From the NCBI GenBank assembly GCA_019749805.1, contig JAIEPH010000021.1, positions 41,779 to 105,778 of the forward strand: a stretch of 64,000 nucleotides of DNA. Direction: 5' to 3'. Position numbers and translations under genes: made by a program. Source of the stretch: Mycobacteriaceae bacterium (GTDB taxonomy: Bacteria; Actinomycetota; Actinomycetes; Mycobacteriales; Mycobacteriaceae). The notes beneath the pieces were generated by a model that was given only the letters and a program-made list of their open reading frames with translations, was not told the DNA's origin and did no database searches. Within the stretch, counting starts at the first letter, position 1. The number at the start of each line of letters is the position of its first letter. Below, piece after piece: positions 3,639-61,601 of this stretch.

Positions 3639-4522
3639 ATGCCGGCAGGCAGGATGTTCGGGTTCGCGGTGCTCGGTGGTTCCAACGACGGCAGCGCCGA
3701 GCTGCCGTCGAGGGTGTGTACCACGAGTTGCTGAGACCATGGATAGTGCAGGCTGAAAGCCACGAGCCCCGTGCGCTCGGCAGCGGGCCGGTGACACATC
3801 GCCAACACGGTCTCGGCGAGGTACTCGACCGGTTCCGTCGGGAACGTATCCGGGATCAGCGCTGAGGCACCGGGTGTGCGCACCGCAGTGGACGGACCAA
3901 CACAGTTGACCGCGATGTTCGCGTCGAGCAGTTCGGCAGCGACGCCCTGCGTGAACCGATGCAAGGCCGCCTTGATCGACGCGTAGACGACGTCGCCCGA
4001 GGTCTTGTTGTACTCGCGGTACGGCCGGACCGGCGCGACTCCGGTCACCGATCCGATGTTGACGATCCAGCCGGCGCCTTGCGCGCGCATACCGGGCACC
4101 GCCGCCTTGGTCAACACGAACGGCGCGCGTAGATAATGCTCCACTGTGCGTTCGAAGGTATCCAGCGACATGTCCTCGACCATCGAATAGTCAGCGAAAC
4201 CAGCGTTGTTGACCAGGATGTCGAGCCGGCCGGTGCTGTCGAGTACCCGCTGGACGAGGTGGTCGCGATCATCGGGGTTCTCCAGGTCCGCCGCCATCCC
4301 GATCGCGTGTCCGCCCGCCGCCTCGATGAGCTCGATGGTTTCGCCGATCGTGCCGGGAAGCGCCGCGGACGATCCCCAACGCAAGGACTGTGACGGCTCA
4401 TTCGAACGCGCCGTCACCACGACCGTCGCGCCCTCGGCCGCCAAGCGCTGCGCGATCGCCCGGCCGATGCCCCGGCTGCTGCCCGTGACCAAAGCTGTTT
4501 TACCGCTGAGCAATCGAGTCAT
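3635..4522 (-). CDS. SDR family oxidoreductase
   Basis: TGSSRGIG, NNAG and YASIK (YxxxK). The start MTRLLSGK at 4522 overlaps the BVMO stop. Confidence 0.92.
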   Translation of the reverse strand: MTRLLSGKTALVTGSSRGIGRAIAQRLAAEGATVVVTARSNEPSQSLRWGSSAALPGTIGETIELIEAAGGHAIGMAADLENPDDRDHLVQRVLDSTGRLDILVNNAGFADYSMVEDMSLDTFERTVEHYLRAPFVLTKAAVPGMRAQGAGWIVNIGSVTGVAPVRPYREYNKTSGDVVYASIKAALHRFTQGVAAELLDANIAVNCVGPSTAVRTPGASALIPDTFPTEPVEYLAETVLAMCHRPAAERTGLVAFSLHYPWSQQLVVHTLDGSSALPSLEPPSTANPNILPAGI

Positions 4523-6438
4523 CGCAGGTCGTAATGCTCTTCGATGGGTGCACGGTGCTGATGCCACAGATCGACCAGTCGGTACGGAGTGGCCACCACG
4601 ACACGGCCCGAACCGGACCGGTAATACGTGTGCGCGTTCGGCGTGTGGCACCACACTGTGCCCGCCATCGCCTCGTCGATCGCGGCGACGTAGTCGTCGT
4701 GCGCTTGCTGCGTCACCTCGATCGCCGTCGCCCCGCGCAGTGCCATCAGTTGCAGGCATTCGATGATGTAGTGCGCCATCACTTCCATCGAGAAGTTCGC
4801 GCCCGCACCGTGGCCCGGACTGTAATTCGGTGCCGAGTTGATGAACAGGTTGGGGAAGCCGGGTACCGTGCCACCGCGATAGGCGCGGGGACTGTCGCCC
4901 CATTCGCCGGCGAGAGTGCGACCACCGCGGCCGCGAATGTCGATGGTCGACAGGAAGTCCAGGTGATAGCCGGTGGCGTAGATGATGACGTCGAGATCGA
5001 TTTGGCGACCGTCGGCCGTGACGATCCCCCGCTCGTTGACTTCGGCGGGCTCACTGGCCTCGACGTCGACGTGACTGCGGGTCAGTGCCGCGTAGTAGCC
5101 ACCCGGATCCCGGATGATGCGCTTACCGTACGGTGCGAAATCAGGTGTCACCTTCCTCGCCAATTCGCTGTCCGCCCCGAAGGTTCGGTCGATGTACTCC
5201 AGGCACATCTGCAGCAGCACGTCGTTGGCCGGTGAGATCGACAGGTGCTCACTTGCCCAATCCGGATCTTGCAGTATCACCGGATAGTTGTTGTCGGACG
5301 TGGCCCAGTACGACTTGAGCCGGTGCCAGTTCGCGTAGTACGGCACGTGGCGCCCCAGGTAGCGCCGAAACTCGGGCACGTCGTCGGTCGGCCGCTTACG
5401 CGGAGCGACCCAGTGCGGCTGGCGTTGGAAAACCGTCAGGTGCTCGACCTCATCGACGCAGGCGTCGACAATCTGCACGGCCGTACAGCCGGCGCCGATG
5501 ACCGCGACCCGCTTACCGGTGAGATCCAGCGACGAGTCCCACTGTGCCGAATGAATACTCGTGCCCGCGAAAGTGTCCCGGCCACCGACGTCGGGCCAGC
5601 GTGGACGGTTGAGGTATCCGGCGGCGGTGATCACCACGCGGTGATGGCTGATCCGACGATGGCCGTCACGATCCACCGTCTCGATGCGCCACTGACGTCG
5701 GTCTTCCTCCCATGTCAGCGCCTCGACCTCGGTGCCGAACCGGATGTGGTCGCGCAGTCTGTACTTGTCGGCCAGCGACACCAGGTAGGCCTGATACTCC
5801 GCGCCCTGCGGGTAGTAGCTCGTCCAGTCGGGATTGACCTCACGCGACAGCGAGTAATACGCCGACGGCGTATCCACACCGATCCCCGGGTAGGTCGTCG
5901 TCAGCCAGGTCCCACCGACTTCGTCGTTGCGGTCGAAGATCTCGTACGCGACACCGGCGTCCGCAACAGCGAACGCGGCGATCATCCCCGCCAGACCCGC
6001 GCCGATGATCGCCACACTCGTCGTCGCCGGGATCGGCACAGTGCGGGGCAATGTCGGCTGCGACAGCTGAAAGCCGCCCTGTTCGAGCAACAGCGGAACG
6101 AACTCGTCGTCGACCTCAGAGCCGAGCGCGAGCGGCAGCAACCGGGTGAACAGTTCCGGGTCGGCAACACGATGAGCTGACGGGCTGTCGAGCGCGTCGA
6201 GGACTGCCGATGCCAATATTTCAGCGGTCTTGGGGTCGGTGACCCCCGCCCGCTCGGGCGGGTCGGGCACGTGTGTAATCGCCGGCCCGAACCTGTCGAT
6301 CACCGACGCGTCGCCGGTGAGCTGAGCCAGCACCGCGACTAGCACACCCGGGTCGGCCTGTCGCAGGTTCGCGCGGAGCTCGACAGGATCGAACCCGGAA
6401 CGGGTGGTCGCCCGAACGGTTTCGGCATCAGTGGTCAC
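4519..6438 (-). CDS. Type I Baeyer-Villiger monooxygenase with N-terminal extension (HapE-like)
   Basis: Two Rossmann motifs (GAGLAG, GAGCTA), GGTW, the BVMO fingerprint FAGTSIHSAQW (FxGxxxHxxxW) and ATGY. GTG start inferred at 6438. Confidence 0.88.
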   Translation of the reverse strand: MTTDAETVRATTRSGFDPVELRANLRQADPGVLVAVLAQLTGDASVIDRFGPAITHVPDPPERAGVTDPKTAEILASAVLDALDSPSAHRVADPELFTRLLPLALGSEVDDEFVPLLLEQGGFQLSQPTLPRTVPIPATTSVAIIGAGLAGMIAAFAVADAGVAYEIFDRNDEVGGTWLTTTYPGIGVDTPSAYYSLSREVNPDWTSYYPQGAEYQAYLVSLADKYRLRDHIRFGTEVEALTWEEDRRQWRIETVDRDGHRRISHHRVVITAAGYLNRPRWPDVGGRDTFAGTSIHSAQWDSSLDLTGKRVAVIGAGCTAVQIVDACVDEVEHLTVFQRQPHWVAPRKRPTDDVPEFRRYLGRHVPYYANWHRLKSYWATSDNNYPVILQDPDWASEHLSISPANDVLLQMCLEYIDRTFGADSELARKVTPDFAPYGKRIIRDPGGYYAALTRSHVDVEASEPAEVNERGIVTADGRQIDLDVIIYATGYHLDFLSTIDIRGRGGRTLAGEWGDSPRAYRGGTVPGFPNLFINSAPNYSPGHGAGANFSMEVMAHYIIECLQLMALRGATAIEVTQQAHDDYVAAIDEAMAGTVWCHTPNAHTYYRSGSGRVVVATPYRLVDLWHQHRAPIEEHYDLR

Positions 6439-6484
6439 GACAACGGAGTATCGACGCCGCGTCGATGGCTGCGGGGGGTCATGT

Positions 6485-6499
6485 CTACTGAGCGGGACA
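6485..6499. promoter_or_regulatory. Candidate operator, copy 1 (divergent BVMO / acyl-CoA dehydrogenase promoter)
   Basis: ctactgagcgggaca; the same motif recurs at 16322, 18815 and 19478. Confidence 0.45.
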
Positions 6500-6539
6500 C
6501 TCATCGTCCTCGCAGTGCACGCGGGCCTACTCTGCGGCA

Positions 6540-7691
6540 ATGGATCGCGTGCATTACGAACCCGACCACCGCGCATTCGGAAAACTGGCCGGCGATTTTG
6601 CACGCAAGGAGGTCGCACCGTTCATTGCCGCCTGGGAGGACGCCGGGATCATTCCCCGTCAGGTGTTCGCCGAAGCTGGAGCCGTCGGGCTGCTGGGCTT
6701 TGCGGCCGGCGAACAATTCGGTGGCGTCGAAGCGCGTGATTTCCGCTACAACCAGATCCTGATCGAATCGTTCATGGATGCAGACTGCGGTGCTGTCGGT
6801 TTGAGTTTCGCGGTTCACAACGACATCTGCCTGCCCTATCTTGCCGACCTGTCCACCGCCGAACAACGCGCTCGGTGGCTGCCGGGCTTCGTTTCCGGAG
6901 ACCTCATCGCAGCCATCGGGATGACCGAGCCCGGCGCGGGCTCTGATGTGGCCGGAATCCGCACCGCGGCCGTCGACGCCGGCGATCACTTCTGCGTCAA
7001 CGGCGCGAAGACGTTCATCACCAACGGACAGAACGCCGATCTGGTGATCACCTGCGTGCGCACCTCAGCCGACAGGCACCGCGGCTTGACGCTGCTCGTG
7101 CTCGAGCGGGGTATGCCCGGCTTCGAGCGCGGCCGCAACCTGGACAAGCTCGGACTGCACTGCCAGGACACGTCGGAGCTGATCCTCACCGACGTGATGG
7201 TGCCGAAAGACAACGTATTGGGCGAGGTGGGGCGGGGATTCGAATATCTGATGCGGAATCTGCCGCAGGAACGGATGCAGATCGCGGTCGGCAGCCTCGG
7301 CCGCGCCCGCGCGGCGCTGCGCTGGACGATCGACTACGTGCGCGACCGCACCGCATTCGGTAAACCCATCGGCGCGCTGCAGAACACCCGCTTCGTCCTC
7401 GCCGACGTCGCCACCGAGGTATCGGTGGCCGAAGCGTTCGTCGACCGCTGCGTCGTCGAACTCAATGCCGGGCGGCTGTCACCCGCTGACGCCGCGAAAG
7501 CCAAGTTGTGGGCCACGGAGATGGAGTTCCGGTGTCTTGATTCCTGCCAGCAGCTGTTCGGCGGCTACGGGTACATGCGCGAATACCCCATCGCCCGCTC
7601 CGCGATCGACGCCAGGGTCACGCGCGTCTATGGCGGCACTTCGGAGATCATGCGCGAAATCATCGGCCGTGAACTGAACCTCGCGCAGTGA
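6540..7691 (+). CDS. Acyl-CoA dehydrogenase (LCAD-like)
   Basis: IGMTEPGAGSD, NGAKTFITNG, QLFGGYGYMREY and YGGTSEIM. Confidence 0.95.
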   Translation: MDRVHYEPDHRAFGKLAGDFARKEVAPFIAAWEDAGIIPRQVFAEAGAVGLLGFAAGEQFGGVEARDFRYNQILIESFMDADCGAVGLSFAVHNDICLPYLADLSTAEQRARWLPGFVSGDLIAAIGMTEPGAGSDVAGIRTAAVDAGDHFCVNGAKTFITNGQNADLVITCVRTSADRHRGLTLLVLERGMPGFERGRNLDKLGLHCQDTSELILTDVMVPKDNVLGEVGRGFEYLMRNLPQERMQIAVGSLGRARAALRWTIDYVRDRTAFGKPIGALQNTRFVLADVATEVSVAEAFVDRCVVELNAGRLSPADAAKAKLWATEMEFRCLDSCQQLFGGYGYMREYPIARSAIDARVTRVYGGTSEIMREIIGRELNLAQ

Positions 7692-9259
7692 AGGACGAAC
7701 GTATGCAGGTGCGCAGCCACACCCTCGGTGACATTCCACGCCGGACCGCCCGCAGACATCCGAACAAAGTCGCCCTCATCGATGGCGACGTCACGCTGAC
7801 CTTTGCCGAATTCGACGAGCTGGTCGACCGTGCGGCGGCCGCTCTGCGGGACAACGGGTTCGGGTCCGGTGACCGCGTGGCGTTGTTGGCGCACAACTGC
7901 TGGCAGTATGCGGTTCTGGCGTTCGCCACCGCCCGGGCGGGCGTCGTGCTCGTGCCGATCAACTTCATGCTCACCGCCGACGAGATCGCCTACATTCTGG
8001 GCCACAGCGGGGTCCGGGGATTCATCGTCGAACACGACCTGATCCCGACCGCGGACGCGGCGATGGCCCGCGCGGGGTCGGTGATCACCAAGGTCACCTT
8101 GAATGCCGATGGGCAGCGCGCACCGTACGGCTGGCATGACTTCGCGCATTGGCTGACCACCACCACTTCGCCGCCGGACGTCGAGATCGCCGATGATCAG
8201 TTGCTGCGCCTGATGTACACCAGTGGCACCGAATCGCGTCCCAAGGGGGTCATGCACTCCAGCCGCAGCCTGATGTCCAATTACGTCAGCACCATCGTGG
8301 CCGGGTCGATGTCGGAGGACGATATCGAGATTCACTCGATGCCGCTCTACCACTGCGCCCAGCTCGACAATTTCCTGGCGACCGACATCTACCTGGGCGC
8401 TACGAGCATCATCCTTCCGCGTCCTGATCCTGAGGTGATCTTGCGCAGCATCGGGGAACACGGAGCGACCAATTTCTTTGCCCCGCCGACCATCTGGATC
8501 AGCCTGCTGCGCTCGCCCATCATCGACAAGGTCGACCTGAGCAGCCTGCGCAAGGGCTACTACGGCGCATCGGCGATGCCCACCGAGATCCTGCTCGAGC
8601 TCCGCGAGCGCCTGCCCGACCTGCAGTTGTGGAACTTCTACGGTCAGACCGAGATGGGCCCCCTGGCAAGCGCATTGGGGCCCACCGATCAGGCGGACCA
8701 CGGCGGTGCGGCGGGCCGGCCCGCGATCAACGTCGAGACCACCATCCTCGACGACACAGATACCCCCGTTTCGGCGGGAACGGTCGGAGAGATCGCGCAC
8801 CGCGGGCCGCATCTCATGCTGGGTTACCTCGACGACCCGATGCACACCGCGGAAGCGTTCCGCGGCGGATGGTTTCATTCCGGAGACCTCGGCTACTACG
8901 ACGAGTTCGGGCTCCTGCACGTCGTCGACCGTAAGAAGGACATGATCAAGACGGGTGGCGAGAACGTCGCGAGCCGTGAGGTGGAGGAGGTGCTCTACCG
9001 GCATCCAGGCGTGGAAGAAGTCGCCGTGTTCGGTGTTCCGCATCCGGTCTGGGTGGAGGCTGTCGTCGCGGCAGTCGTCACGCGCGACGGCGTGAGCCCG
9101 ACCGAGGCTGAACTGCTCACCCACTGCCGCGACCACCTCGCCGGGTACAAGACGCCGAAGCAGGTCCACTTCGTCGAAGTGTTACCGAAGAACCCGAGCG
9201 GCAAGCTGCTCAAGCGTGATCTGCGCACCCGATTCGGCGAGCAGAACGTGTTCCACTGA
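7688..9259 (+). CDS. Acyl-CoA synthetase (AMP-binding, FadD-like)
   Basis: YTSGTESRPKG, YGQTE, GWFHSGDLG, DRKKDMIKTGGENV and PKNPSGKLLK. Alternative start at 7703. Confidence 0.95.
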   Translation: MKDERMQVRSHTLGDIPRRTARRHPNKVALIDGDVTLTFAEFDELVDRAAAALRDNGFGSGDRVALLAHNCWQYAVLAFATARAGVVLVPINFMLTADEIAYILGHSGVRGFIVEHDLIPTADAAMARAGSVITKVTLNADGQRAPYGWHDFAHWLTTTTSPPDVEIADDQLLRLMYTSGTESRPKGVMHSSRSLMSNYVSTIVAGSMSEDDIEIHSMPLYHCAQLDNFLATDIYLGATSIILPRPDPEVILRSIGEHGATNFFAPPTIWISLLRSPIIDKVDLSSLRKGYYGASAMPTEILLELRERLPDLQLWNFYGQTEMGPLASALGPTDQADHGGAAGRPAINVETTILDDTDTPVSAGTVGEIAHRGPHLMLGYLDDPMHTAEAFRGGWFHSGDLGYYDEFGLLHVVDRKKDMIKTGGENVASREVEEVLYRHPGVEEVAVFGVPHPVWVEAVVAAVVTRDGVSPTEAELLTHCRDHLAGYKTPKQVHFVEVLPKNPSGKLLKRDLRTRFGEQNVFH

Positions 9260-9308
9260 CCGGGCACAGCCATTCCCCGGGAGAGCTTTTGGGAGTTCAC
9301 TCACTCGC

Positions 9309-9794
9309 ATGAGTGACGACATCACGCTGTCTGAGATCCAGGAATTCATCGCCGGGTTCTGGTACCACTACGACCAGGGCCACTTCGACGAGCTGGCCAC
9401 CCGAATCGGTGACGAGATGGAGTACCTGAGCCGGTCCGATTCCGGCCACTGCCCGTTCGAGGATCTGTTGGCGGCCGAACTGCACGGTGGCGCCGAGACG
9501 CTGGCGTGGCTCACGCAGCACCGGAACGAGAACCCCTACCCGCTGCGCCATCACGCGACCAACATCTTCCGTACCGGTAGCGATGGTGCCGTGACCGATG
9601 CGCGCTTTTATCTGTACGTCAATCAGATCACCAATAATGTCCCGTTCGACGTCTCCAGCGGCGTCGTCGATGTCGGGATACGGCGGGCCGGTGATGGCCT
9701 GGTGTTCACGTCGATGAGGGTGGTGCTCGACGCCGAGGATTCGATTCCCTTTGCCGAACACAGCGCGAAGAGTGCGGCCACGGCAGGCACATGA
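9309..9794 (+). CDS. NTF2-like / SnoaL-like domain protein
   Basis: 161 aa with 'IQEFIAGFWYHYDQGHFDELA' and 'LRHHATNI', typical of the SnoaL fold. Its stop overlaps the next start. Confidence 0.7.
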   Translation: MSDDITLSEIQEFIAGFWYHYDQGHFDELATRIGDEMEYLSRSDSGHCPFEDLLAAELHGGAETLAWLTQHRNENPYPLRHHATNIFRTGSDGAVTDARFYLYVNQITNNVPFDVSSGVVDVGIRRAGDGLVFTSMRVVLDAEDSIPFAEHSAKSAATAGT

Positions 9795-10639
9795 GCGCAC
9801 CCTTCGGCGGCGGAGTCGCCGTGATCACGGGCGCCGGTGCGGGCATTGGCGCCGGTTTGGCCCGCCATGCGGCCGAGCTCGGCATGACGGTGGTGCTGGC
9901 CGACATCGACGCCGACGCGGTTGCGGCGCTTCGAGACGAGCTCACCAGGGCGGGCATAGTCGCCATTGACGCAGTCTGCGATGTCCGCGATCCGGGGGCC
10001 GTATCGGCGCTCGCCGAGAGGGTGTACCGCGACGTCGGTCCGGTGCGGCTGCTTATCAACAACGCAGGCATCGAGCAGTTCGGATATCTCTGGGATACGC
10101 CCGTCGAGAACTGGAATCGACTGGTCGATATCAACATCAGCGGAGTCTTCCACGGTGTGCGAGCCTTCCTTCCGCTGATGATCGAGGCTGGGGAGCCTGC
10201 TTGGGTGTGGAACCTGTCGTCCATCGGTGGAGTCGCCGTCGTCCCGCTGCAGGCGCCCTACATCATGAGCAAGCACGCGGTGTTGGCGCTCACCGAGTGC
10301 CTACGGCTGGAGGTAGAACTGGCCGGCCACGAGCACATTCACGTCCAGGCGGTGCTGCCGGGGGCCGTCGTGTCGAACATCTTCGAGTCAGCGGGTGGGG
10401 TGACCGACGGCGACGTGGTAGCAGCCGAATCCCAGCGTGCGGCCATGCTCGACATCAAGGCCGATGCGATGGATCCGCGCGCCGCCGCCGAGGCGGTGTT
10501 CGAACAGGCCGCCGAAGGGCGGTTCTATCTTCTGACGCAGCCGGACTATGTCGGCTCGGCGATGGCTGAACGTGCCAATGTGCTTGCCTCTCAACAACCC
10601 CCGAAGTTGCGCACGCAACGCCGATTCGATCCCGCGTGA
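9791..10639 (+). CDS. SDR family oxidoreductase
   Basis: TGAGAGIG, NNAG and YIMSK. Confidence 0.93.
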   Translation: MSAPFGGGVAVITGAGAGIGAGLARHAAELGMTVVLADIDADAVAALRDELTRAGIVAIDAVCDVRDPGAVSALAERVYRDVGPVRLLINNAGIEQFGYLWDTPVENWNRLVDINISGVFHGVRAFLPLMIEAGEPAWVWNLSSIGGVAVVPLQAPYIMSKHAVLALTECLRLEVELAGHEHIHVQAVLPGAVVSNIFESAGGVTDGDVVAAESQRAAMLDIKADAMDPRAAAEAVFEQAAEGRFYLLTQPDYVGSAMAERANVLASQQPPKLRTQRRFDPA

Positions 10640-11577
10640 CCGCTCCGCAGCTCGATCCCGATGCAGCCGAGCGCGTCGCCTCGTTCGGTGAAATGCCGCC
10701 CATGCGTGAACGAGGTCTCGACGCGATCCGGGAGGCCATCGAAACCGCTCCGCTGCCCGAGACGATGCCTGAAATGGCGGCGGTCGACGATTGCGCCGCA
10801 CCGGCCCCCGCCGGGCCGGTGCCGCTGCGGATCTACCGACCCACCGCCGACGCCAATGCGCCGGTGTTGGTGTACTTCCACGGCGGCGGCATGGTGATGG
10901 GCTCCAATCACTCGTTCGAGCCGCTGGCGCGAACGCTTGCCGCCCAATCCAACGCCACCGTGGTGTCGGTGGACTACCGGCTCGCTCCAGAGTTCCCCGC
11001 ACCTGCTCAGTTCGACGATGCATTCAGGGCCACCGAATGGGTTGCGGAACACGCGCAGCAGATCGGTGCCGACGTCACACGACTGGCGGTCGTCGGCGAC
11101 AGCGCGGGTGGCTCGCTGGCCGCGGCGGTGGCGCTCGCGTCCCGCGACCGCGGTGGTCCCGCCATCTGCTGTCAAGTGCTGCTCTACCCGGGCCTCGACC
11201 GCGATATGGCCGTGGCGTCGATCGCCGCACTTGCAGATGCCCCGATGCTCAGCCGCGACGACATCGTCTACATGCACGAGCTCGCCGACGCCGGCGGCGC
11301 ACCGCACGACCAATTCCGGGTGCCGGCCTCTGCGACCGATTTGAGTGGCCTTCCGCCCGCCATCGTCGTCACCGCCGAATGCGACCCGATCCGCGACTGG
11401 GGTGAGCGCTACGCATTACGCCTGCGGGATGCGGGGGTTCAAACCACCCTCACGCGCTATCCGGGCGCCTACCACGGTTTCCTCATGCGATCGGATGCCA
11501 CCGCCCGCGGAAGGCTGGCGATCGCGGAAGTCGGCGGACTTTTGCGCGCGAAATTCGCTCATCCGCTGCTTTTCTGA
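10636..11577 (+). CDS. Alpha/beta hydrolase (HSL/family IV esterase)
   Basis: HGGG, GDSAGG, DPIRD and HGF. Confidence 0.92.
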   Translation: MTAPQLDPDAAERVASFGEMPPMRERGLDAIREAIETAPLPETMPEMAAVDDCAAPAPAGPVPLRIYRPTADANAPVLVYFHGGGMVMGSNHSFEPLARTLAAQSNATVVSVDYRLAPEFPAPAQFDDAFRATEWVAEHAQQIGADVTRLAVVGDSAGGSLAAAVALASRDRGGPAICCQVLLYPGLDRDMAVASIAALADAPMLSRDDIVYMHELADAGGAPHDQFRVPASATDLSGLPPAIVVTAECDPIRDWGERYALRLRDAGVQTTLTRYPGAYHGFLMRSDATARGRLAIAEVGGLLRAKFAHPLLF

Positions 11578-11672
11578 GCACTCGGAACGGGTCTCCCGAT
11601 CACCGGACATCCGGCAGTTCGACAACCGGATCAAGCCACAGAATCAGATCAACCGAGAAAACAGGAGACGAG

Positions 11673-12749
11673 ATGCTCACCGATCAGCGACGTTTGGAGC
11701 TGTCCGACGTTCTGCGCCCTGCCGCGAAGCCGATTGAGATCGACGGCGTCTACACCGACGATCAACGCGACCGACTGCTCGACGTCGTCCGCACCCAGGG
11801 ACCGTGGAAGTTGATCATCGCTCAGCATTTCGCGTCGGCCGATGAGCTGATGGCGACGATGAGCGGCGCATTCCCCGAGGGCTTCACCCCCTCGCTGGAT
11901 CTCTTCCTGACGCCCACCTTCCGTGGCTATCTCGCAAACTATGGAGCGGTGCTTCACCCCGAACTGCACGACTGCTTCTACAACGAGAAGTTTCTCCAGA
12001 TGGCGAAGCGCTACTGGGACGCCGAATACGCGAAGCCTGAATTGATGTTGTTCAACATCAACGGGCCCTGCGCCAACCGCGACCCGGGTCATCTGGATTC
12101 TCCGAGCTTCCGCGGCATCCGCCACGAGAATGCACCAACCTGGCTGTGCAGCGTGATGGGAAAGTCAGGTCTGTTCACCGACTATCTGATCAAGATGGCC
12201 CAGGTGATCACGTGGTTCTCGCTCGATGAGGGCAGCGGATTCACGTACTGGCCAGACGGTCCCCTCAAGGCGCCGCAGCGCCTGTTGCCCCCCGTTTACA
12301 ACCGCGGCGTGGTGGTGCAGAACGAGATGATGGTCCACCGCGGGGAAGCCAACGGCCCACTCGACCAGCAGACTCCCGCGGACCTGACTTTCGACACGGT
12401 GTTCACCGGTGATCCCGCGGACCGCGACCTGTGGCTGCTCAAGAACGGCGACGACGTGATCGCCCGCCACCACACCGATGAACTGCGCTTCCTGGTGCAC
12501 TGGTCGGCCGAAGTGTTCTCCGACTACGACGAACTCAAGAAGAACATGGACGGTTCGGACGATCTGACCGCCGACAAGGCCATCGACATGATGGTCGACG
12601 ACTTGAGCCGCAAGGGTGTCAAGCTCGACATTCCCAGCGAGCCGATGCACGATCCGGGCTTCATCGGCGCGCTCAACGCGGCCTACGACCTGGGCGGACC
12701 GGCGGCATATCCAGAGGAGGCGCCGATCAGCGCCTTCCAACTGACCTGA
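11673..12749 (+). CDS. Hypothetical protein with a putative Fe(II)/2-oxoglutarate dioxygenase-like HxD...H signature
   Basis: 358-aa ORF with strong GC3 bias and RBS aggag. The CDS itself is well supported; the fold call is inference from GHLD, QVITWF, GSGFTYWPDG and NRGVVVQNEMMVHRG. Confidence 0.8.
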   Translation: MLTDQRRLELSDVLRPAAKPIEIDGVYTDDQRDRLLDVVRTQGPWKLIIAQHFASADELMATMSGAFPEGFTPSLDLFLTPTFRGYLANYGAVLHPELHDCFYNEKFLQMAKRYWDAEYAKPELMLFNINGPCANRDPGHLDSPSFRGIRHENAPTWLCSVMGKSGLFTDYLIKMAQVITWFSLDEGSGFTYWPDGPLKAPQRLLPPVYNRGVVVQNEMMVHRGEANGPLDQQTPADLTFDTVFTGDPADRDLWLLKNGDDVIARHHTDELRFLVHWSAEVFSDYDELKKNMDGSDDLTADKAIDMMVDDLSRKGVKLDIPSEPMHDPGFIGALNAAYDLGGPAAYPEEAPISAFQLT

Positions 12750-12761
12750 TAGCCGCGACCT

Positions 12762-13193
12762 ATGGAATGCGAGTGCGTCGAGCGTCAACAGATCATCGAT
12801 GTTCTCAATAGGTACGCGACGTGTCTCGACACACGAGACTGGTTGGGCCTGAATGACGTATTTCATCCGCGGGCCGTGGGCATCTACGCTGTCACGCGCA
12901 ACGGGCGCGCGGAGATTGTGGATTCCATCCGCAGTTTCCTCGGCGGTTGCGGGCCATCGCAACACCTCCTCGGCAACTACCAGATCGCGATCGACGGCGA
13001 CGAAGCGCAATCCTCGACCAAGGCTCGGGTGCTGCACGTCGGGGCCGGAGATCGCGCACACCTGACCCCGTACGAGGCGATCGGCGTCTACCGCGATCGT
13101 CATCTGCGTACAACCGACGGATGGCGAATCATTCACCGTCACTTCGACGTCCATATCACGATCGGTGACATCAACGTCCTCCGCCCGGGCTGA
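12762..13193 (+). CDS. NTF2-like SnoaL_4 protein (BaiE/LinA/scytalone dehydratase-like)
   Basis: 'IIDVLNRYATCLDTRDW', 'SQHLLGN' and 'GWRIIHR'. Confidence 0.8.
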   Translation: MECECVERQQIIDVLNRYATCLDTRDWLGLNDVFHPRAVGIYAVTRNGRAEIVDSIRSFLGGCGPSQHLLGNYQIAIDGDEAQSSTKARVLHVGAGDRAHLTPYEAIGVYRDRHLRTTDGWRIIHRHFDVHITIGDINVLRPG

Positions 13194-13206
13194 AGGGAAC
13201 GAATTC

Positions 13207-13989
13207 ATGCAGAGGTTCGACGACCGAAGGATCATCGTCACCGGAGCCGGCTCAGGAATCGGACAGGCGACCGTCACCCGTCTGCTCGACGAGGGCGGCA
13301 CCGTCGTGGCCTTCGACGTGTCCATCGAAGGTCTTGCGGCGACCGCGGCTGCTGCAGAAGAGGCCGGCACGGGTAAGCGGCTGACGACCGCCGTGCTGGA
13401 CATCTCGGACGAGGTTGCGGTGGGTACCGAGGTGGCAACGGCGATCAACACGCTCAACGGGCTGGATGTGCTCGTCAACGCCGCGGCCATTCAGCTCTGT
13501 GCAAACACCCACGAACACACCCTTCACGATTGGAACACCACGCTGGCGATCAACCTGACGGGCACGTTCTTGATGACGCGGGCTTCGCTGCCCGCGCTCA
13601 TCGACTCGGGCCGCGGAGTGGTGATCAACTTCACCTCCACCGCAGCGACTTTCGCGCATCCGTACATGGCCGCGTACGCCGCGAGCAAGGGCGGCGTCCT
13701 GGCGCTCACGCACTCCTTGGCGCTGGAGTACTCAAAACAGGGGCTTCGGGCGGTCAACATCCAGCCAGGTGGGGTGTCGACGGCGTTGGCCAACAGCACC
13801 CTCGACAAGATGCCCGAAGGATATGACCTCGGTCTGTGGGCAAAACAGACTCCGCTGCTGCACGGTGAGGAAAGCGAAATCCTCGGCGACCCCAGTGCCG
13901 TCGCGGCCGTGATTGCCATGGTGGCGTCCGACGATGGCCGGTTCATCACCGGCACCGAAATCCGAGTCGACGGCGGTGCGCACGCCTGA
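13207..13989 (+). CDS. SDR family oxidoreductase
   Basis: TGAGSGIG, YAASK and ITGTEIRVDGG. ATG at 13207 follows the RBS gaaggga. Confidence 0.93.
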   Translation: MQRFDDRRIIVTGAGSGIGQATVTRLLDEGGTVVAFDVSIEGLAATAAAAEEAGTGKRLTTAVLDISDEVAVGTEVATAINTLNGLDVLVNAAAIQLCANTHEHTLHDWNTTLAINLTGTFLMTRASLPALIDSGRGVVINFTSTAATFAHPYMAAYAASKGGVLALTHSLALEYSKQGLRAVNIQPGGVSTALANSTLDKMPEGYDLGLWAKQTPLLHGEESEILGDPSAVAAVIAMVASDDGRFITGTEIRVDGGAHA

Positions 13990-13992
13990 GGC

Positions 13993-14799
13993 TCAGCGCA
14001 CCACCACTGAACTGGGCTCGCGCGGCGCACCCATCATGTCGCGGTGCGACGGCGGCTGCCTGCCGTCCTCGTCGGTGATGCCGTAGCGCTGCGCGATCTC
14101 CGCGCCGATCACCGTACGGCCGGACAGCTCGGCGAGGTCGGGATCGCGATACAGCGCGTCGATCACATGCCCGGTGAATTCGGGAGTTTCGGCGTGCTCG
14201 GCCGTCTTCGCCAGCGCCTCGGGATGGCCGTCAAACGCGGCACGGAGGCGCTCGGTGAGCAGGATGCCCATCCAGATCGACACCGTGACCACCCCGGTGT
14301 CGCGGAAGTCGACCGCCATGTCGGCGGCCATCTTGTCGACGCCGGCCTTCTGGGCGCCGTAGGCCGGACCGTGCATGTAGCACACCGACCCCGGCGACGA
14401 GGTGAATGCGATCAGACCTCGGCCCCGGCGCACCAGCAGCGGCGCGGCATGCCACGACGCGACGTACGCCGACCGCAGCCCGACGTCAAGAACATCGGCG
14501 AGTTCGAGTGCCTTCTCCCAGAACGGCTTTGGATTGACCAGCTCGTCGGATATGGCTGCGGCGTTGTTCACCAAAAGGTCCAACCCGCCGTTTTCCTCTT
14601 CCACGCGCTTGAACAACTGGGCTACCGCGTCGTCGTCGCGGTGGTCGACCTTCACGGCGATACCGCCGTCACCCGGGTCGCGCACGGTCCTGCCGGTCAG
14701 ATACACCCGCCACCCGTCAGCGACGAGCGCGGCCGCGATGCCACGTCCCGCGCCGCGGCTGGCACCCGTCACGACCGCCACCGGTGGAATGTCTTTCAC
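13993..14799 (-). CDS. SDR family oxidoreductase (DHRS1-like)
   Basis: TGASRGAG, VNNA and YGAQK. Confidence 0.9.
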   Translation of the reverse strand: MKDIPPVAVVTGASRGAGRGIAAALVADGWRVYLTGRTVRDPGDGGIAVKVDHRDDDAVAQLFKRVEEENGGLDLLVNNAAAISDELVNPKPFWEKALELADVLDVGLRSAYVASWHAAPLLVRRGRGLIAFTSSPGSVCYMHGPAYGAQKAGVDKMAADMAVDFRDTGVVTVSIWMGILLTERLRAAFDGHPEALAKTAEHAETPEFTGHVIDALYRDPDLAELSGRTVIGAEIAQRYGITDEDGRQPPSHRDMMGAPREPSSVVVR

Positions 14800-14809
14800 A
14801 GGATCGAAG

Positions 14810-15100
14810 TTACGTGCTCACCCGTGCTGATTCATCGACCACCGGCAGATCGCCGGTGCGGACCGCGTCGATGATGGAGCCGTTCAGCGCTGAGCAGGCC
14901 AGGAACAGGCCGCGCTCCGCATGCTCGGTCAAGTGCTCGGCGTCGCGGCGTTCCAGACAGCGGGCGGAGGCGTCGGCATTCCACTGCACGCTGGTTTGAT
15001 TCCAGCTGCTCTTTCGCGCCTGCACGCACGCACCGCAACGGCGGCAGCCCACCGACACCATCGGAGCGTCGGCGAGTCGGTTGTCGGGCCGAACGGCCAT
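14810..15100 (-). CDS. Small Cys-rich protein coupled to kshA (family often auto-annotated 'ferredoxin')
   Basis: 96 aa, MAVRPDNRL...CRRCGAC...RC...AC. Its ATG shares one base with the kshA stop (TGATG). Confidence 0.7.
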   Translation of the reverse strand: MAVRPDNRLADAPMVSVGCRRCGACVQARKSSWNQTSVQWNADASARCLERRDAEHLTEHAERGLFLACSALNGSIIDAVRTGDLPVVDESARVST

Positions 15101-16281
15101 CAGACGCTTCCCGACCTCGCCGCTTGAGAGCTGATGTTCTCGTCGACGACCTTCATCCACTCCTCGTACGGGCTGGTGGTGTCGAGTTCGTATTCGAAGC
15201 GGTCCACCATGTCAGGCTCGACATCGGCGGCATCGACGTAGAACTGCTCGTACCACCGGCGCAACTGGTAGACGGGTCCGTCCTCCTCGCACAGCAGCGG
15301 ATTGTCGATGCGGGCCTTGTTCTTCCAGATCTCGACATCCTGCTCGAAACCCACCTTGACCCAATCGCCTAGCGCGATCGCCGCTTGCAGCGCCGCATCG
15401 CCGGGCAGCGCCTCCGACTTCTTGACGATGATGCCGTACTGCAGCACAAAGGAATTGGCGTCGATCGGGTAATGGCAGTTGATCAGAACCGTGTTCTGAT
15501 CGTCGTTCTCGAAGTGGTAGGTCAGGTCGTCGATCATGAACGACGGGCCGAAGTACGAGGCCACCGAGGTGGTACCGAGCAGCCGAGGCTGTCCCTCGGG
15601 ATTGGGGATGTCACCGCGCGAGCCACCGTTCATGTACTGCGTGGCGACGTGGCCCTCGAAGATGTTCTTGAAGTGCGTCGGCAGCGAACCGTGAATGTAG
15701 AAGAAGTGCGCCATGTCGACGACGTTGTCGATGATCTCGCGGCAGTTGGTGTTGACGACGGTGGTGTACCAATGCCAGTCGGTCCACTCGTCACTCGTCG
15801 CTCCCTCGATCCGAGGTATGGCGACCTCGTCGGGCGGCGGATTCTTCTCGGGGTCGTTCCAGACGAACAGCATGCCGTCCTGTTCGAGGGTGGTCCACGT
15901 CGCGGTGCGGGCCAGCCGCGGCGTCCGCTTGCTGTAGGGCACCTTCTTGCATCGGCCGTCGCCGCCCCATCGCCAGTCGTGGAACGGGCAGGCGATCTCG
16001 TCGCCCTTCACGGTGCCCTGGCTGAGGTCCCCGCCCATGTGACGGCAGTAGCCGTCGAGCACGTTGATCTTGCCGTCGCCGCTGCGGAACACCACCAGCT
16101 TCTGGCCGAAGGCGCTCACCGAATGCGGCTCGCCGTCGCCGAAGTCCCTGGTCAACCCCAGGCAGTGCCATCCGCGCGCGAACCTGGTCGGTGCTGCTGC
16201 TGCTTCGATCTGCCGAATCTCGTCGGTCTGATCGTCGGCTCGGCCGACGGTGGCTTCTGCGGTCCCTGGCTGCGACGTCAT
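15100..16281 (-). CDS. kshA: 3-ketosteroid 9alpha-hydroxylase oxygenase subunit (Rieske)
   Basis: RFARGWHCLG, Rieske CRHMGGDL...CPFHDW, mononuclear Fe motif DNVVDMAHFFYIH, and QDVEIWKNK. Start MTSQPG inferred. Confidence 0.95.
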   Translation of the reverse strand: MTSQPGTAEATVGRADDQTDEIRQIEAAAAPTRFARGWHCLGLTRDFGDGEPHSVSAFGQKLVVFRSGDGKINVLDGYCRHMGGDLSQGTVKGDEIACPFHDWRWGGDGRCKKVPYSKRTPRLARTATWTTLEQDGMLFVWNDPEKNPPPDEVAIPRIEGATSDEWTDWHWYTTVVNTNCREIIDNVVDMAHFFYIHGSLPTHFKNIFEGHVATQYMNGGSRGDIPNPEGQPRLLGTTSVASYFGPSFMIDDLTYHFENDDQNTVLINCHYPIDANSFVLQYGIIVKKSEALPGDAALQAAIALGDWVKVGFEQDVEIWKNKARIDNPLLCEEDGPVYQLRRWYEQFYVDAADVEPDMVDRFEYELDTTSPYEEWMKVVDENISSQAARSGSV

Positions 16282-16321
16282 AACCTCGTTGTACGCCCGC
16301 GACACGGCCTGTGGAGCCAAT

Positions 16322-16336
16322 CGTCCCGCTGGGAGG
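16322..16336. promoter_or_regulatory. Candidate operator, copy 2 (divergent kshA / kstD promoter)
   Basis: The reverse strand reads cctcccagcgggacg. Confidence 0.45.
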
Positions 16337-16381
16337 GAAAATCCTCCGCAGCCGCGATCCCCCCGACCTACTGTTGAAGCC

Positions 16382-18097
16382 GTGACGACTGCTGCGCCCA
16401 CCACCGTTCCCGCCGGGATGCCCCTGCGCGATACGACCGTCGATCTGCTCGTCGTGGGATCGGGCACCGGCATGGCTGCCGCGCTGGCGGCCGCCGAGCG
16501 CGGTCTGAAAGTGCTAATCGTCGAGAAATCGCCGTACGTCGGCGGTTCCACCGCACGGTCCGGCGGAGCCCTGTGGATTCCCGCGACGCAGGTGCTCGAG
16601 GAGAACGGCGCCGGCGACACCGCGCAAAAGGCGCGGACCTACCTCGATTCGGTGGTCGCAGGGACCGCTCCGCCGCAACGGTCGGCGGAGTTCGTCACCC
16701 AGCTTGCGGCGACGGTCGAGATGCTGCGCCGCACCACACCGATGCGGTTCACATGGGCGCGCGACTATTCCGATTACCACCCAGAGCATCCCGGGGGAAG
16801 CGCCGACGGGCGGACGTGTGAATGCAGGCCGTTCAATGCATCGCTACTCGGCCAGTACCGGTCGCTGCTGCGCCCGGGATTGATGGAGCCGAAGATCCCG
16901 ATGCCCACCACAAGTGCGGACTATCGCTGGATGAACCTGATGGCACGCGTACCACGAAAAGGCTTGCCGCTCATCGTCAAACGATTGGCCCAGGGCTTAG
17001 GCGGCCTGATGCTCGGCCGGCGCTACACCGCCGGCGGACAGGCGCTGGCCGCAGGCTTGTTCGCGGGCGTCCTGCGCGCGGGCATCGGCGTGTGGACGCA
17101 GACCGCGCTGGTGCGGCTGATCACCGACGGCGACAGGGTCACCGGCGCCGTCGTCGCACACGACGGACGCGAGGTCACCGTCGAAGCACGACGCGGCGTC
17201 GTGCTGGCCGCGGGCGGCTTCGACCACAACATGGACATGCGGTGGAAGTTCCAGTCCGAGTCACTCGGCGAGCACACCAGCCTCGGCGCAGAAACCAACA
17301 CCGGCGACGCGATCCGCATCGCCCAAGATGCCGGTGCCGGAATCGACTTGATGGATCAGGCCTGGTGGTTCCCCGCGGTGGCGCCGCTGCCGGGGGCGGA
17401 TCCGCTGGTGATGCTCGCCGAACGATCGCTGCCGGGCTCGCTGATCGTCGACCAGACGGGGCAGCGGTTCACCAATGAGGCCAGCGATTACATGTCCTTC
17501 GGCCAGTGTGTGCTCGCGCGCGAGCGTGCCGGTAACCCCGTCGAGTCCATGTGGATCGTCTTCGACCAGCAGTACCGCAACAGTTACGTCTTTGCCGCGG
17601 ACCGTTTTCCGCGGATGAGCCTGCCGCGGGCGTGGTACGACGCGGGCATCGCGCATCGGTCCGAGGATTTCGCTGAGCTCGGGCGGATGATGAAGGTGCC
17701 CGAGGCGCAGTTCGTCGCCACGGTCTCCCGATTCAACGAGATGTCGCGCGCTGGAGACGATTCCGACTACGGCCGCGGACGTAGCGCGTACGACCGCTAC
17801 TACGGCGATCCCACCATCACCCCGAACCCGAATCTGCGCCCGCTCGACCACGCCCCGTTCTATGCGGTCAAGATGGCGCTCAGCGACCTCGGTACGTGCG
17901 GCGGTCTGCGCGCCGACGAGCGCGCCCGGGTGCTGCGCGAAGATGGTACCGCCATCGGAGGGCTGTATGCGATCGGCAACACCGCCGCGAATGCGTTCGG
18001 AGCCACCTACCCCGGTGCGGGTGCGACGATCGCGCAGGGTCTGGTGTACGGATACATTGCCGCCCTGGACGCCGCCCTGGACGCCGCCGCGACGTGA
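16382..18097 (+). CDS. kstD: 3-ketosteroid Delta1-dehydrogenase
   Basis: DLLVVGSGTG, GGSTARSGGALWIP, YDRYYGDPT, DLGTCGGL and TYPGAGATI. GTG start at 16382 inferred. Confidence 0.92.
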   Translation: MTTAAPTTVPAGMPLRDTTVDLLVVGSGTGMAAALAAAERGLKVLIVEKSPYVGGSTARSGGALWIPATQVLEENGAGDTAQKARTYLDSVVAGTAPPQRSAEFVTQLAATVEMLRRTTPMRFTWARDYSDYHPEHPGGSADGRTCECRPFNASLLGQYRSLLRPGLMEPKIPMPTTSADYRWMNLMARVPRKGLPLIVKRLAQGLGGLMLGRRYTAGGQALAAGLFAGVLRAGIGVWTQTALVRLITDGDRVTGAVVAHDGREVTVEARRGVVLAAGGFDHNMDMRWKFQSESLGEHTSLGAETNTGDAIRIAQDAGAGIDLMDQAWWFPAVAPLPGADPLVMLAERSLPGSLIVDQTGQRFTNEASDYMSFGQCVLARERAGNPVESMWIVFDQQYRNSYVFAADRFPRMSLPRAWYDAGIAHRSEDFAELGRMMKVPEAQFVATVSRFNEMSRAGDDSDYGRGRSAYDRYYGDPTITPNPNLRPLDHAPFYAVKMALSDLGTCGGLRADERARVLREDGTAIGGLYAIGNTAANAFGATYPGAGATIAQGLVYGYIAALDAALDAAAT

Positions 18098-18769
18098 TCA
18101 CGCGTCGTCGGCGTCGGCCTTCTTCTCGATCTCGTACCAGTAATCCGGTGCAGGCCAAGGGACTTTCGTTCGTCCGCCGTCGCCGACGCGCGGGAACTCG
18201 GCTTCGGCCTCATCGAGTTCTTTGATCATCTTCAGCGTCAGCTCGCGCTCGTTCGCGTAGTAGCGCTCAGCCCAGTTCAGCGCAACGCGCGCATAGGCCC
18301 ACGTGGTGTCGGCTTTAGCCCACTTCGCGTCTTTGGCTGCGCTCCGGTACATCTCGTCAACCCAGGCGAGGTGCTCCTGCAGGATCTCCTTGAGCCGTGC
18401 GGGGTTCGTGAGATGCCCCAGCGTCACTCGCAGCAGAGGAGAGTGCTTGAGAACAGGCGGGTCGAGCGGCGCATCGTTCGCCCACCGCGTGACCGCATCC
18501 AGGCCGGCCTCGGTGATCTTGTACAACCTTCGGCTGCGAGCACCGCTGCTGTTGTCGAACCGCGACGTCACCAGGCCGAGCTGCTCGAGCTTCTTGAGTT
18601 CTGAGTAGATCTGGCTGTAGGCGGGGCTTCCGTAGAAGAAGCGCATACTCCAGTCGATCCACTTTCGGATGTCGTAGCCCGACAACTCGTATTCGTACGA
18701 AAGCATGCCGAGGAGCGCCCAGCTGGTAGCCGCGAGATTCGGCTTGCCCGGCAGATCGCTTCCTTCCAC
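18098..18769 (-). CDS. PadR family transcriptional regulator
   Basis: 'ALLGML...SGYDI...SQIYSELKKLEQLGLV...RRLYKITEAG'. GTG start at 18769 inferred. Confidence 0.92.
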   Translation of the reverse strand: MEGSDLPGKPNLAATSWALLGMLSYEYELSGYDIRKWIDWSMRFFYGSPAYSQIYSELKKLEQLGLVTSRFDNSSGARSRRLYKITEAGLDAVTRWANDAPLDPPVLKHSPLLRVTLGHLTNPARLKEILQEHLAWVDEMYRSAAKDAKWAKADTTWAYARVALNWAERYYANERELTLKMIKELDEAEAEFPRVGDGGRTKVPWPAPDYWYEIEKKADADDA

Positions 18770-18814
18770 GTTTTTCAGACTAACAACACAGGTCACAGGC
18801 TCTAGTCGAACTCA

Positions 18815-20336: not shown

Positions 20337-20346
20337 CGTGCTTCCA

Positions 20347-61529: not shown

Positions 61530-61601
61530 CGATCTTCCTAAGGTGTTTTTGATGGATTTCTGGCGTTGATTGCGGCGACTGTCACAGCAAGACTAACTGG
61601 C

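Follow-up and report, generated by a model that had tools for sequence, protein, structure and literature searches.

The locus and the X gene

The window considered here is the whole 64,000-nucleotide stretch of a Mycobacteriaceae bacterium (contig JAIEPH010000021.1, positions 41,779 to 105,778). Its gene at 11673..12749 (+) encodes a 358-residue protein, labelled X in the following text. X is very probably an iron/2-oxoglutarate (2OG)-type oxygenase of a family that has no database model. With moderate confidence, we read it as a soluble non-haem Fe(II)/2OG oxygenase of the double-stranded β-helix (DSBH) type acting on a steroid-type intermediate within an accessory catabolic island.

The open reading frame (ORF) of X starts with ATG and has the position, strand and length given by an earlier reading of the sequence alone. 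All five motifs named in that reading are present in the protein, at residues 138–148 (PGHLDSPSFRG), 177–182, 187–197, 205–224 and 271–278 (LRFLVHWS). The gene also has its own ribosome-binding site, as was claimed: a Shine-Dalgarno-like AGGAG occupies 11663..11667 (+) with the ATG 5 nt further on, and its GGAG is kept in the alignment of 80 mycobacterial loci. The stop codon of the preceding esterase gene at 11577 leaves the expected 95-bp gap before X. This gap harbors a 16-nt box, TCCCGATCACCGGACA, at 11594..11609 (+), which is at least 80% conserved among the same 80 loci while the flanking intergenic sequence is not; we regard it as a candidate for an operator or a promoter element. An inverted repeat of the window, CCGGA-CA-TCCGG (11603–11614), overlaps the box. 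A promoter and terminator scan was uninformative: it found 0 promoters, and its terminators did not exceed background.

X is a constrained protein-coding gene. Its GC content at third codon positions is 0.82, in a window with 66% GC overall. Comparison with 72 ungapped mycobacterial orthologues demonstrates strong purifying selection (median nonsynonymous change, pN, 0.06; median synonymous change, pS, 0.62; pN/pS 0.096, i.e. ~0.10).

Predicted fold and candidate active site

The AlphaFold2 model of X, obtained with a diverse alignment, has a mean predicted local distance difference (pLDDT) score of 94.8 and a predicted template modelling (TM) score of 0.92, and all five models reach at least 93. 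A Foldseek search of the PDB with this model gave 80 matches at E≤1e-3. The top 50 of them were listed, and all 50 listed matches are Fe(II)/2OG oxygenases (E ~1e-5, probability 1.00): ABH8/AlkB, the Burkholderia pseudomallei protein 6n1f, AsqJ, Ofd2, HygX and PHD2, as well as the collagen prolyl 4-hydroxylase (P4H) of PBCV-1 (vCPH), P3H1, EasH, FtmOx1, SptF and MysH. The target-normalised TM score is the highest for 6n1f (0.62), followed by vCPH (0.57), Ofd2 (0.56) and PHD2 (0.55). The jelly-roll fold suspected from the motif order is supported by this confident model and by the identity of every listed neighbour, and we assign X to the Fe(II)/2OG DSBH fold class with high confidence, as far as a predicted structure allows.

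The topology of the model is canonical. Strand I (residues 119–130) carries Asn128 and is followed by the HxD motif (residues 140–142); strands III–VI comprise residues 175–183, 190–192, 202–204 and 208–215; His222 starts the strand 222–224, and Arg272 opens the last strand, 272–282. Between the distal-His and Arg strands the model shows an insertion of ~47 residues (225–271, encoded by 12345..12485 (+)), which contains a three-strand β-meander at residues 243–267.

Conservation was assessed on a diverse alignment of 64 full-length relatives with 23–71% identity and a mean column identity of 31%; 62 of the 64 rows are intact, and two (P0152 and P0161) are visibly frameshifted around His140 and Asp142. 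A set of closely related sequences, having 110 invariant columns, was little informative. In the diverse alignment only Gly196, His222 and Arg272 are invariant. His140 is found in 62 rows and Asp142 in 63, the exceptions being confined to the two frameshifted rows, and the columns conserved at 90% or more include these two residues together with Asn128 (Asn in 59 of 64 rows), Arg147, Gly148, Asn210 and Trp277. The N-terminal part of the family signature reads hydrophobic-hydrophobic-x-N...P...H-x-D-x-P-x-F-R-G, and its middle and C-terminal parts read N-x-A-x-V-x-D-N-D-x-M-F-H-R-V ... R-x-S-x-x-W-K-A-x-V-F. No residues of this large and diverse family are better conserved than the HxD pair, the distal His and the Arg picked out by the sequence-only reading.

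His140 and Asp142 (codons of H140-L-D142 at 12090..12098 (+)) are the predicted first two iron ligands, judged by their conservation and by weak alignments with AlkB and YbiX. The predicted distal iron ligand is His222 of the MMVHRG motif (12336..12338 (+)), for which the same alignments and the position at a strand start speak as well. Arg272 (12486..12488 (+)), placed at the beginning of the last DSBH strand, is predicted to bind the C5 carboxylate of 2OG. Asn128 (12054..12056 (+); LFNIN in strand I) is a candidate 2OG-contacting residue, a role suggested by its conservation and a low-scoring profile alignment.

The LRFLVHWS segment, formerly proposed as a co-substrate strand, is only partly conserved: Arg272 and Trp277 are kept in the family and His276 is not. 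X belongs to a minority clade having R-x-L/M-x-H-W-S/T where the rest of the family has R-x-S-x-S-W-K, and this replacement appears to remodel the face of the last strand that points inward. Arg272 and Asn128 are kept in both clades.

Size and distribution of the X family

A word-indexed search returned 995 homologues of X, every named one being a "hypothetical protein", and an exhaustive search gave 629 representatives of 50%-identity clusters; a close copy of X is present in 340 species genomes. The closest homologue, with 97% identity, belongs to Mycolicibacterium gadium. Identity is still ~72% in Sphingomonas, in Parahaliea and in further Gammaproteobacteria, a strikingly high value between phyla. 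X was described as an orphan, which is right only insofar as it matches no model of Pfam or NCBIfam; it belongs to a large unannotated family.

X does not reach the gathering threshold of PF13640 (2OG-FeII_Oxy_3) and has no match to PF05721 (PhyH). Weak PF13640 matches occur in 6 of 64 X relatives, the best with E=0.0028; PF13640 is the only family that appears repeatedly. A positive control is available in the same window: the protein encoded at 61566–62765 matches PF05721 with E=1e-30, which shows that ordinary 2OG oxygenases of this genome are within the reach of Pfam. This conventional PhyH-type Fe/2OG dioxygenase of 399 residues is encoded beside a LacI regulator (60525–61529 (−)) and a Gfo/Idh/MocA oxidoreductase (62762–63769).

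Two X copies, both 89% identical to X, lie on separate contigs with partly different neighbours in the actinobacterial metagenome-assembled genome (MAG) MFD05747.bin.3.79 (loci L005 and L006). Sequence near-identical to positions 7600–18200 of the window was found mainly in drinking-water and biofilm metagenomes (public runs X1–X20), and the source of the window would seem to be a Mycolicibacterium of water systems related closely to M. gadium.

The island around X

X lies within an island of ~20 kb, at about 0.9–21.4 kb of the window. The first part of the island comprises, in order, genes for IclR, an esterase, Dabb, a short-chain dehydrogenase/reductase (SDR), a Baeyer-Villiger monooxygenase (BVMO), an acyl-CoA dehydrogenase (ACAD) and an acyl-CoA ligase. 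The BVMO, a type-I Baeyer-Villiger/FMO-like enzyme, is encoded at 4519..6504 (−) and matches PF00743 and PF13738. The middle part begins with a SnoaL/NTF2-like gene (9297..9794 (+); PF13577, weak, E=5e-4) and SDR1 (9791..10639 (+); PF00106, E=5e-42). The gene directly upstream of X encodes an esterase of the Abhydrolase_3/hormone-sensitive-lipase type (10636..11577 (+); PF07859, E=7e-66), which scores 300 bits with the NCBIfam LipP1-like model, below the cutoff of that model. X is directly followed by a SnoaL_4 ("BaiE-like") gene (12762..13193 (+); PF13577, E=2e-25) and by SDR2 (13165..13989 (+); PF00106, E=9e-48).

The last part of the island opens with SDR3, convergent with X (13993..14799 (−); PF00106, E=9e-28), and a small ORF of at most 116 residues without a Pfam match (14810–15160 (−)). 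The small ORF lies immediately upstream of a gene for a KshA-family Rieske oxygenase and overlaps its end; its homologue in M. neoaurum has 86–99 residues. The KshA-like gene itself (15100..16257 (−)) matches PF19298 (KshA_C) with E=6e-90 and the Rieske domain with E=9e-23, its start being inferred from the 384-residue M. gadium gene. It is followed by KstD (16394..18097 (+)), identified by the NCBIfam equivalog NF009479 with 1072.8 bits versus a cutoff of 793, and by a PadR-type regulator (18098..18796 (−); PF03551, matched by the orthologues from M. gadium and M. neoaurum). A 4HBT gene, another SDR and a DAP_DH_C-like gene (PF19328, ~350 residues, 20338–21399) complete the island. A DAP_DH_C-like gene is met repeatedly at less than 10 kb from X-family genes: in the window, in M. 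gadium, in gammaproteobacterial MAGs (L086–L090) and near a 43%-identical relative of X.

The earlier designation of this region as a steroid cluster is sound as far as KstD, which passes its equivalog cutoff, and the nearby KshA-family gene are concerned; what they mark is an accessory island of the C-19+ type and not the cholesterol regulon. A canonical cholesterol cluster was rejected, there being no hsa, ipd or mce (mce4) genes among the scanned ORFs. The region at 22–60 kb of the window holds housekeeping genes (obg, proB, RNase E, valS, folC, nadE and others).

Conservation of the locus in mycobacteria

Synteny was counted in 80 mycobacterial genomes, the loci being located with the close X alignment. 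The most constant partners of X are the esterase (75 of 80 loci), the SnoaL-like gene and the small ORF (73 each), SDR1 and the KshA-like gene (72 each) and KstD and PadR (68 each). SDR2 is present in 48 loci, a BVMO within 8 kb in 38 and the SnoaL_4 gene of the window in 8. X can be regarded as a core gene of the island, since the SnoaL-like/SDR/esterase group and the KshA-like/KstD/PadR group accompany it in 68–75 of the 80 loci. The unit that X was supposed to head together with the BaiE-like protein and an SDR is present in the window as a same-strand order, and it has turned out to be the variable part of the locus, given the counts for SnoaL_4 and SDR2.

The kshA paralogue, kstD paralogue and PadR gene found at the X locus are content typical of C-19+/SCG-2 clusters, and this trio is kept in 68–72 of the 80 loci. 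The M. neoaurum orthologue of X (WP_030137223, 80% identity) has SnoaL/SDR/esterase genes on one side and KshA, KstD, PadR, a flavin reductase, a second KstD, a ChsH2-like protein and a thiolase on the other. A cluster encoding KstD2 and KstD3 and homologous to the C-19+ cluster of M. smegmatis (MSMEG_2851-2901) has been described in M. neoaurum (PMC5962712). The M. neoaurum locus of X fits this description, judging by gene content, and may be the same cluster. The C-19 cluster is said to act on "yet unknown steroid compounds" (PMC6593523). In Mycolicibacterium sp. HK-90 the C-19+-homologous cluster SCG-2, with adjacent kstD2 and kshA3, is strongly induced by diosgenin; its kstD2 mutant accumulates 9,16-dihydroxy-pregn-4-ene-3,20-dione and 9-hydroxyandrostenedione (9-OHAD), and the enzymes that remove the spiroketal are not known. 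MSMEG_2871/2873, annotated as hypothetical, or a gene of SCG-2 could be the X orthologue, which we give as a lead only.

X in other lineages

In Sphingobium TomTYG65 (locus L096) two arylsulfatase genes are followed by X (66% identity), SnoaL_2 and a KshA-family Rieske gene (PF19298, 2e-59), and the locus further contains an SDR, a luciferase-like monooxygenase (LLM), LuxR and a TonB receptor. The pairing of LLM and LuxR resembles the progesterone pdc cluster of Caenibius. A 359-residue "putative oxygenase" adjoining X in Sphingobium was considered as an X paralogue and rejected, as it is a KshA-family Rieske protein. SDR3 of the window shares 60% identity with the SDR encoded after the KshA-like gene of TomTYG65 (14827–15666 of its locus). 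The likeness of both SDR3 and X suggests, at the sequence level, that a module has been exchanged between Actinobacteria and Alphaproteobacteria.

On plasmid pNL2 of Novosphingobium aromaticivorans, X is followed by genes annotated as enoyl-CoA hydratase (ECH), ACAD, α/β hydrolase, FAH-family hydrolase, acetaldehyde dehydrogenase and aldolase, i.e. an HsaD/E/G/F-like set. Plasmid pRHL1 of Rhodococcus jostii RHA1 carries two X paralogues with 44–45% identity (15001–16008 and 22388–23401 of locus L098), 6 kb apart, next to SnoaL-like, KstD (65% identical to the KstD of the window), BVMO (45%) and SDR genes. Sphingomonas RP10 has the order X, SnoaL_4, SDR, SnoaL_4, with sulfatases, glycoside hydrolases GH1/GH3, an old yellow enzyme (OYE) and a TonB receptor nearby. 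In a gammaproteobacterial MAG, X stands among genes for a BVMO, an Abhydrolase_3 esterase, a pyrroloquinoline quinone (PQQ)-dependent dehydrogenase and a Zn-dependent alcohol dehydrogenase (Zn-ADH) on one side and an SDR, glyoxalase, TonB receptor, LuxR and DAP_DH_C on the other. An SDR likewise adjoins a relative with 43% identity, and DAP_DH_C is not far from it. Overall, an SDR adjoins X in loci L001, L002 and L086–L091 and follows the KshA-like gene in L096; the contexts of clade-B relatives are mostly too short to inform. From these loci the recurrent partners of X are an SDR, SnoaL/NTF2-like proteins and KshA-family/KstD enzymes, often with a BVMO and an esterase.

In a plasmid collection, 14 of 22 replicons with X-family genes come from tomato-root isolates of Sphingobium. 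The number of X-family places per replicon ranges from 1 to 7, with 4–7 on 11 large replicons of ~0.9–1.3 Mb. Sphingobium strains of the RC1 type degrade tomatine, solanine and dioscin and also the aglycones tomatidine, solanidine and diosgenin, and of the enzymes involved only glycosidases and 3-β-hydroxysteroid dehydrogenases have been identified (PMC10653915). On pTomRC1a of strain RC1 (locus L095, 11962–14779) an X-family gene (45% identity) is followed by a class-III aminotransferase gene, both being flanked by TonB receptors and insertion sequences. The aminotransferase is an intriguing neighbour, as tomatidine carries a ring nitrogen.

Proposed function and alternative explanations

The computed data establish the ORF and its constraint, the family with its pattern of conservation, the predicted fold class and the neighbouring genes. 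Going beyond them, we infer that X binds a metal and 2OG and works as an oxygenase on a steroid, and we propose a reaction type and a cascade, with confidence that differs from part to part. X is very likely an active iron enzyme and likely uses 2OG as co-substrate. That its substrate is of the steroid type is somewhat less assured, though still favoured, and the chances that the outcome is hydroxylation rather than another reaction are about even. Fe(II) would be held by His140, Asp142 and His222. 2OG would chelate the iron with its C5 carboxylate on Arg272, Asn128 probably helping. The O2-dependent decarboxylation of 2OG would then generate an Fe(IV)=O species abstracting a hydrogen atom from the substrate, with a hydroxyl as the most probable product.

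The adjacent, almost universal SDR could oxidise the hydroxyl installed by X to a ketone. Where a BVMO is present, it might turn this ketone into an ester or lactone to be hydrolysed by the esterase. The sequence ketone, BVMO, esterase is a classical way to cut an unactivated C-C bond. Rings A/B would be opened by the KshA-like and KstD enzymes, and X would work in a PadR-associated accessory steroid island of the C-19+/SCG-2 type.

Several observations weigh against this interpretation. In single-sequence searches X has no Pfam match even at E≤10, and NCBIfam and PDB sequence searches gave nothing meaningful; the sole matches in these searches were GvpL (E=0.17) and lipoproteins (E~1). A profile of the X family run against PDB sequences found a spurious AcnR match alone. 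The rmsd of the structural matches is large, and their query-normalised TM scores are only 0.27–0.38; the low scores are accounted for by the ~118 N-terminal and ~75 C-terminal extra residues of X and its internal insertion. Alignment of the X family by hhalign with E. coli YbiX was mis-registered (probability ~1%) and was rejected. With E. coli AlkB and with a three-sequence YbiX/PiuC profile from solved structures, the expected register was obtained at an insignificant probability (≤~1%). In this register Asn128, His140, Asp142 and His222 fall on Asn120, His131, Asp133 and His187 of AlkB, whose roles we take to be established, and on FNRY, HVD and SLHCV of YbiX, while the S..W after Arg272 falls on SFMW. 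These registers are consistent with the assigned residues and serve as a check, not a proof. Furthermore, X reads R-F-L-V-H-W-S where the family has R-x-S-x-x-W-K, so Ser274 and Lys278 are lost and His276 is gained, and the lost Ser and Lys may have contributed to co-substrate binding. X of Parahaliea lies beside rhamnose/lactate-type genes and X of Sphingomonas beside sulfatases and glycosidases, no steroid genes being near in either case. RNA data on the locus, low-depth Logan contigs with guessed run types, are too thin to inform on operon structure or induction.

The last two gene contexts bear on the alternative that survives best, namely a true Fe(II)/2OG oxygenase whose substrate is something other than the steroid nucleus. 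Such a substrate could be alicyclic, terpenoid or sugar-derived, or it could be a fragment released from a steroid (a side chain or a ring-opening product). The Parahaliea locus contains rhamnulose-phosphate aldolase/SDR, LutABC-like and FGGY kinase genes, and the sulfatases, GH1/GH3 enzymes and OYE of Sphingomonas RP10 point in the same direction. So do gammaproteobacterial loci with PQQ-dependent dehydrogenase, Zn-ADH, amidohydrolase_2, glyoxalase and TonB genes, where neither KshA nor KstD was found within 7 kb, and a clade-B relative that is translationally coupled to a P450. The alcohol dehydrogenase, aldehyde dehydrogenase, ECH and ACAD genes of the M. neoaurum locus would suit an aliphatic fragment. 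However, KshA-family, KstD or meta-cleavage-type genes stand beside X in both Actinobacteria and Alphaproteobacteria, and in mycobacteria they do so in 68–72 of 80 genomes. We consider a substrate of this kind rather unlikely, a steroid-type intermediate being preferred.

The changes in the last strand raise another possibility, that X is a DSBH iron enzyme which does not use 2OG. It would then depend on another co-substrate or on none, or would catalyse isomerisation, epimerisation, dehydration or C-C cleavage. The loss of Ser274 and Lys278 and the gain of His276 in the X clade would agree with this, as would the fact that no hidden Markov model of 2OG oxygenases matches X. Against it, Arg272 and Asn128 are kept in both clades and all listed structural neighbours are 2OG-dependent; moreover, many bona fide 2OG oxygenases do without the Ser of the RxS motif. 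An enzyme without 2OG appears improbable.

Since PHD2, viral collagen P4H, Ofd2 and AlkB/ABH8 are among the best structural neighbours and the weak Pfam matches are to the P4H-like PF13640, X might also be a regulatory or repair hydroxylase of proteins or nucleic acids (PHD/P4H/AlkB type) present in the island by chance. The synteny of X with genes of catabolism is tight in the 80 genomes and extends across phyla, X occurs in 4–7 copies on catabolic Sphingobium replicons, and no regulatory or repair partners adjoin it; a role of this kind is hard to reconcile with these facts, and its probability is very small. A merely coincidental motif pattern in a non-enzymatic or non-coding ORF, for which nothing but the lack of database annotation speaks, is effectively refuted by the pN/pS of ~0.1, the 995 homologues, the confident fold and the conservation, which is highest at the motif residues.

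Within the preferred interpretation of X as a steroid-directed 2OG oxygenase, a bolder and doubtful extension can be formulated: X and its paralogues might start the removal of the E/F spiroketal or spiro-aminoketal from sapogenins and glycoalkaloids (diosgenin, tomatidine, solasodine-type), which would then be the natural substrates of C-19+/SCG-2 clusters. Hydroxylation next to the ketal would open the rings, and SDR, BVMO and esterase would then lead to a 16-hydroxy-pregnane-20-one and further to C19 steroids. The idea draws on the diosgenin induction of the HK-90 cluster, on the products of the kstD2 mutant, on the X copies in tomatine-degrading Sphingobium and on the position of the RC1 copy beside a class-III aminotransferase gene and of the Sphingomonas copy beside GH1/GH3 and sulfatase genes. 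Against it, X also occurs in numerous mycobacteria and in N. aromaticivorans, for which no use of sapogenins is known, and the plasmid collection is skewed towards the Tom strains, many of which have been sequenced.

If the proposed function is true, a 2OG-type oxygenase at the core of C-19+/SCG-2-type islands would be a fourth enzyme class beside the P450, Rieske and molybdenum hydroxylases. X would then offer a handle on two questions, the true substrates of these islands and the way in which bacteria dismantle the sapogenin spiroketal; the latter is relevant to industrial steroid manufacture from diosgenin and to the ecology of tomatine and solanine in the rhizosphere. Should X be a 2OG enzyme that hydroxylates steroids regio-selectively, it would need no redox partner proteins and would be attractive for biocatalysis. 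Defining a model for the X family, with its 629 clusters, would improve the annotation of hundreds of genomes.

Comparison with known oxygenases

The closest structural affinity of X, as judged from the predicted model, is to the P4H/PiuC-like branch (PF13640: PHD2, PBCV-1 vCPH, Schizosaccharomyces pombe Ofd2, E. coli YbiX/PiuC and 6n1f). X has the DSBH fold in common with these proteins and the X family has the same motif order, N...HxD...H...R(x)S..W; PF13640 is also the only Pfam family repeatedly matched by X relatives. X differs from them in its ~118 N-terminal and ~75 C-terminal additional residues and stays below the Pfam thresholds. In YbiX only 10 residues separate the distal His from the conserved Arg, whereas X has the ~47-residue insertion with the β-meander at this place, and the X clade is devoid of the Ser of R(x)S. 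The contexts differ as well: that of X is catabolic small-molecule metabolism, while P4H/PiuC-type proteins are involved in protein modification or linked to siderophores. The AlkB/ABH demethylases provide many of the top Foldseek matches of X, but their alignment with X is insignificant (probability <1%), and X has neither a nucleotide-recognition lid nor a repair context.

Functionally, the known kind most similar to X is that of the PhyH-like small-molecule 2OG oxygenases (AsqJ, FtmOx1, EasH, SptF, HygX), which match X in Foldseek with E ~1e-5 to 1e-4. These enzymes oxidise hydrophobic polycyclic natural products, and the matched SptF entry was solved with andiconin D bound. In contrast to X, which lies in a catabolic island and does not match PF05721, they are biosynthetic and mostly of fungal or Streptomyces origin.

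The known bacterial steroid hydroxylases (KshA/KshB, CYP125/142 and the Mo-dependent C25 dehydrogenase) belong to the same type of pathway as X, and a KshA-family gene adjoins X. The presumed common role is the activation of steroid C-H bonds for degradation, but the folds and cofactors are entirely different. In a 2018 review of bacterial steroid hydroxylases the classes named are P450s, Rieske KSH and Mo-dependent C25 dehydrogenases alone. 2OG enzymes receive no mention there, in agreement with the sequence-only reading, which knew of none among the established actinobacterial steroid-degradation steps. Our literature search found no paper linking a 2OG oxygenase to bacterial steroid catabolism.

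In plant steroidal-alkaloid metabolism, the 2OG dioxygenases GAME31/23DOX, 16DOX and DPS act on carbons within or beside the spiro E/F rings of spirosolanes, and the hydroxylation triggers a ring rearrangement. This chemistry is a precedent for the spiroketal opening considered above. They are biosynthetic and belong to the DOXC class (PF03171/PF14226), and no sequence relationship with X surfaced in the searches made. From the predicted structure and the triad, we class X as a new unannotated family of the Fe(II)/2OG superfamily; it falls below the thresholds of every individual Pfam family, PF13640 and PF05721 included. What is new about X is its pathway context and its place in the core of a steroid island that is understood only in part.

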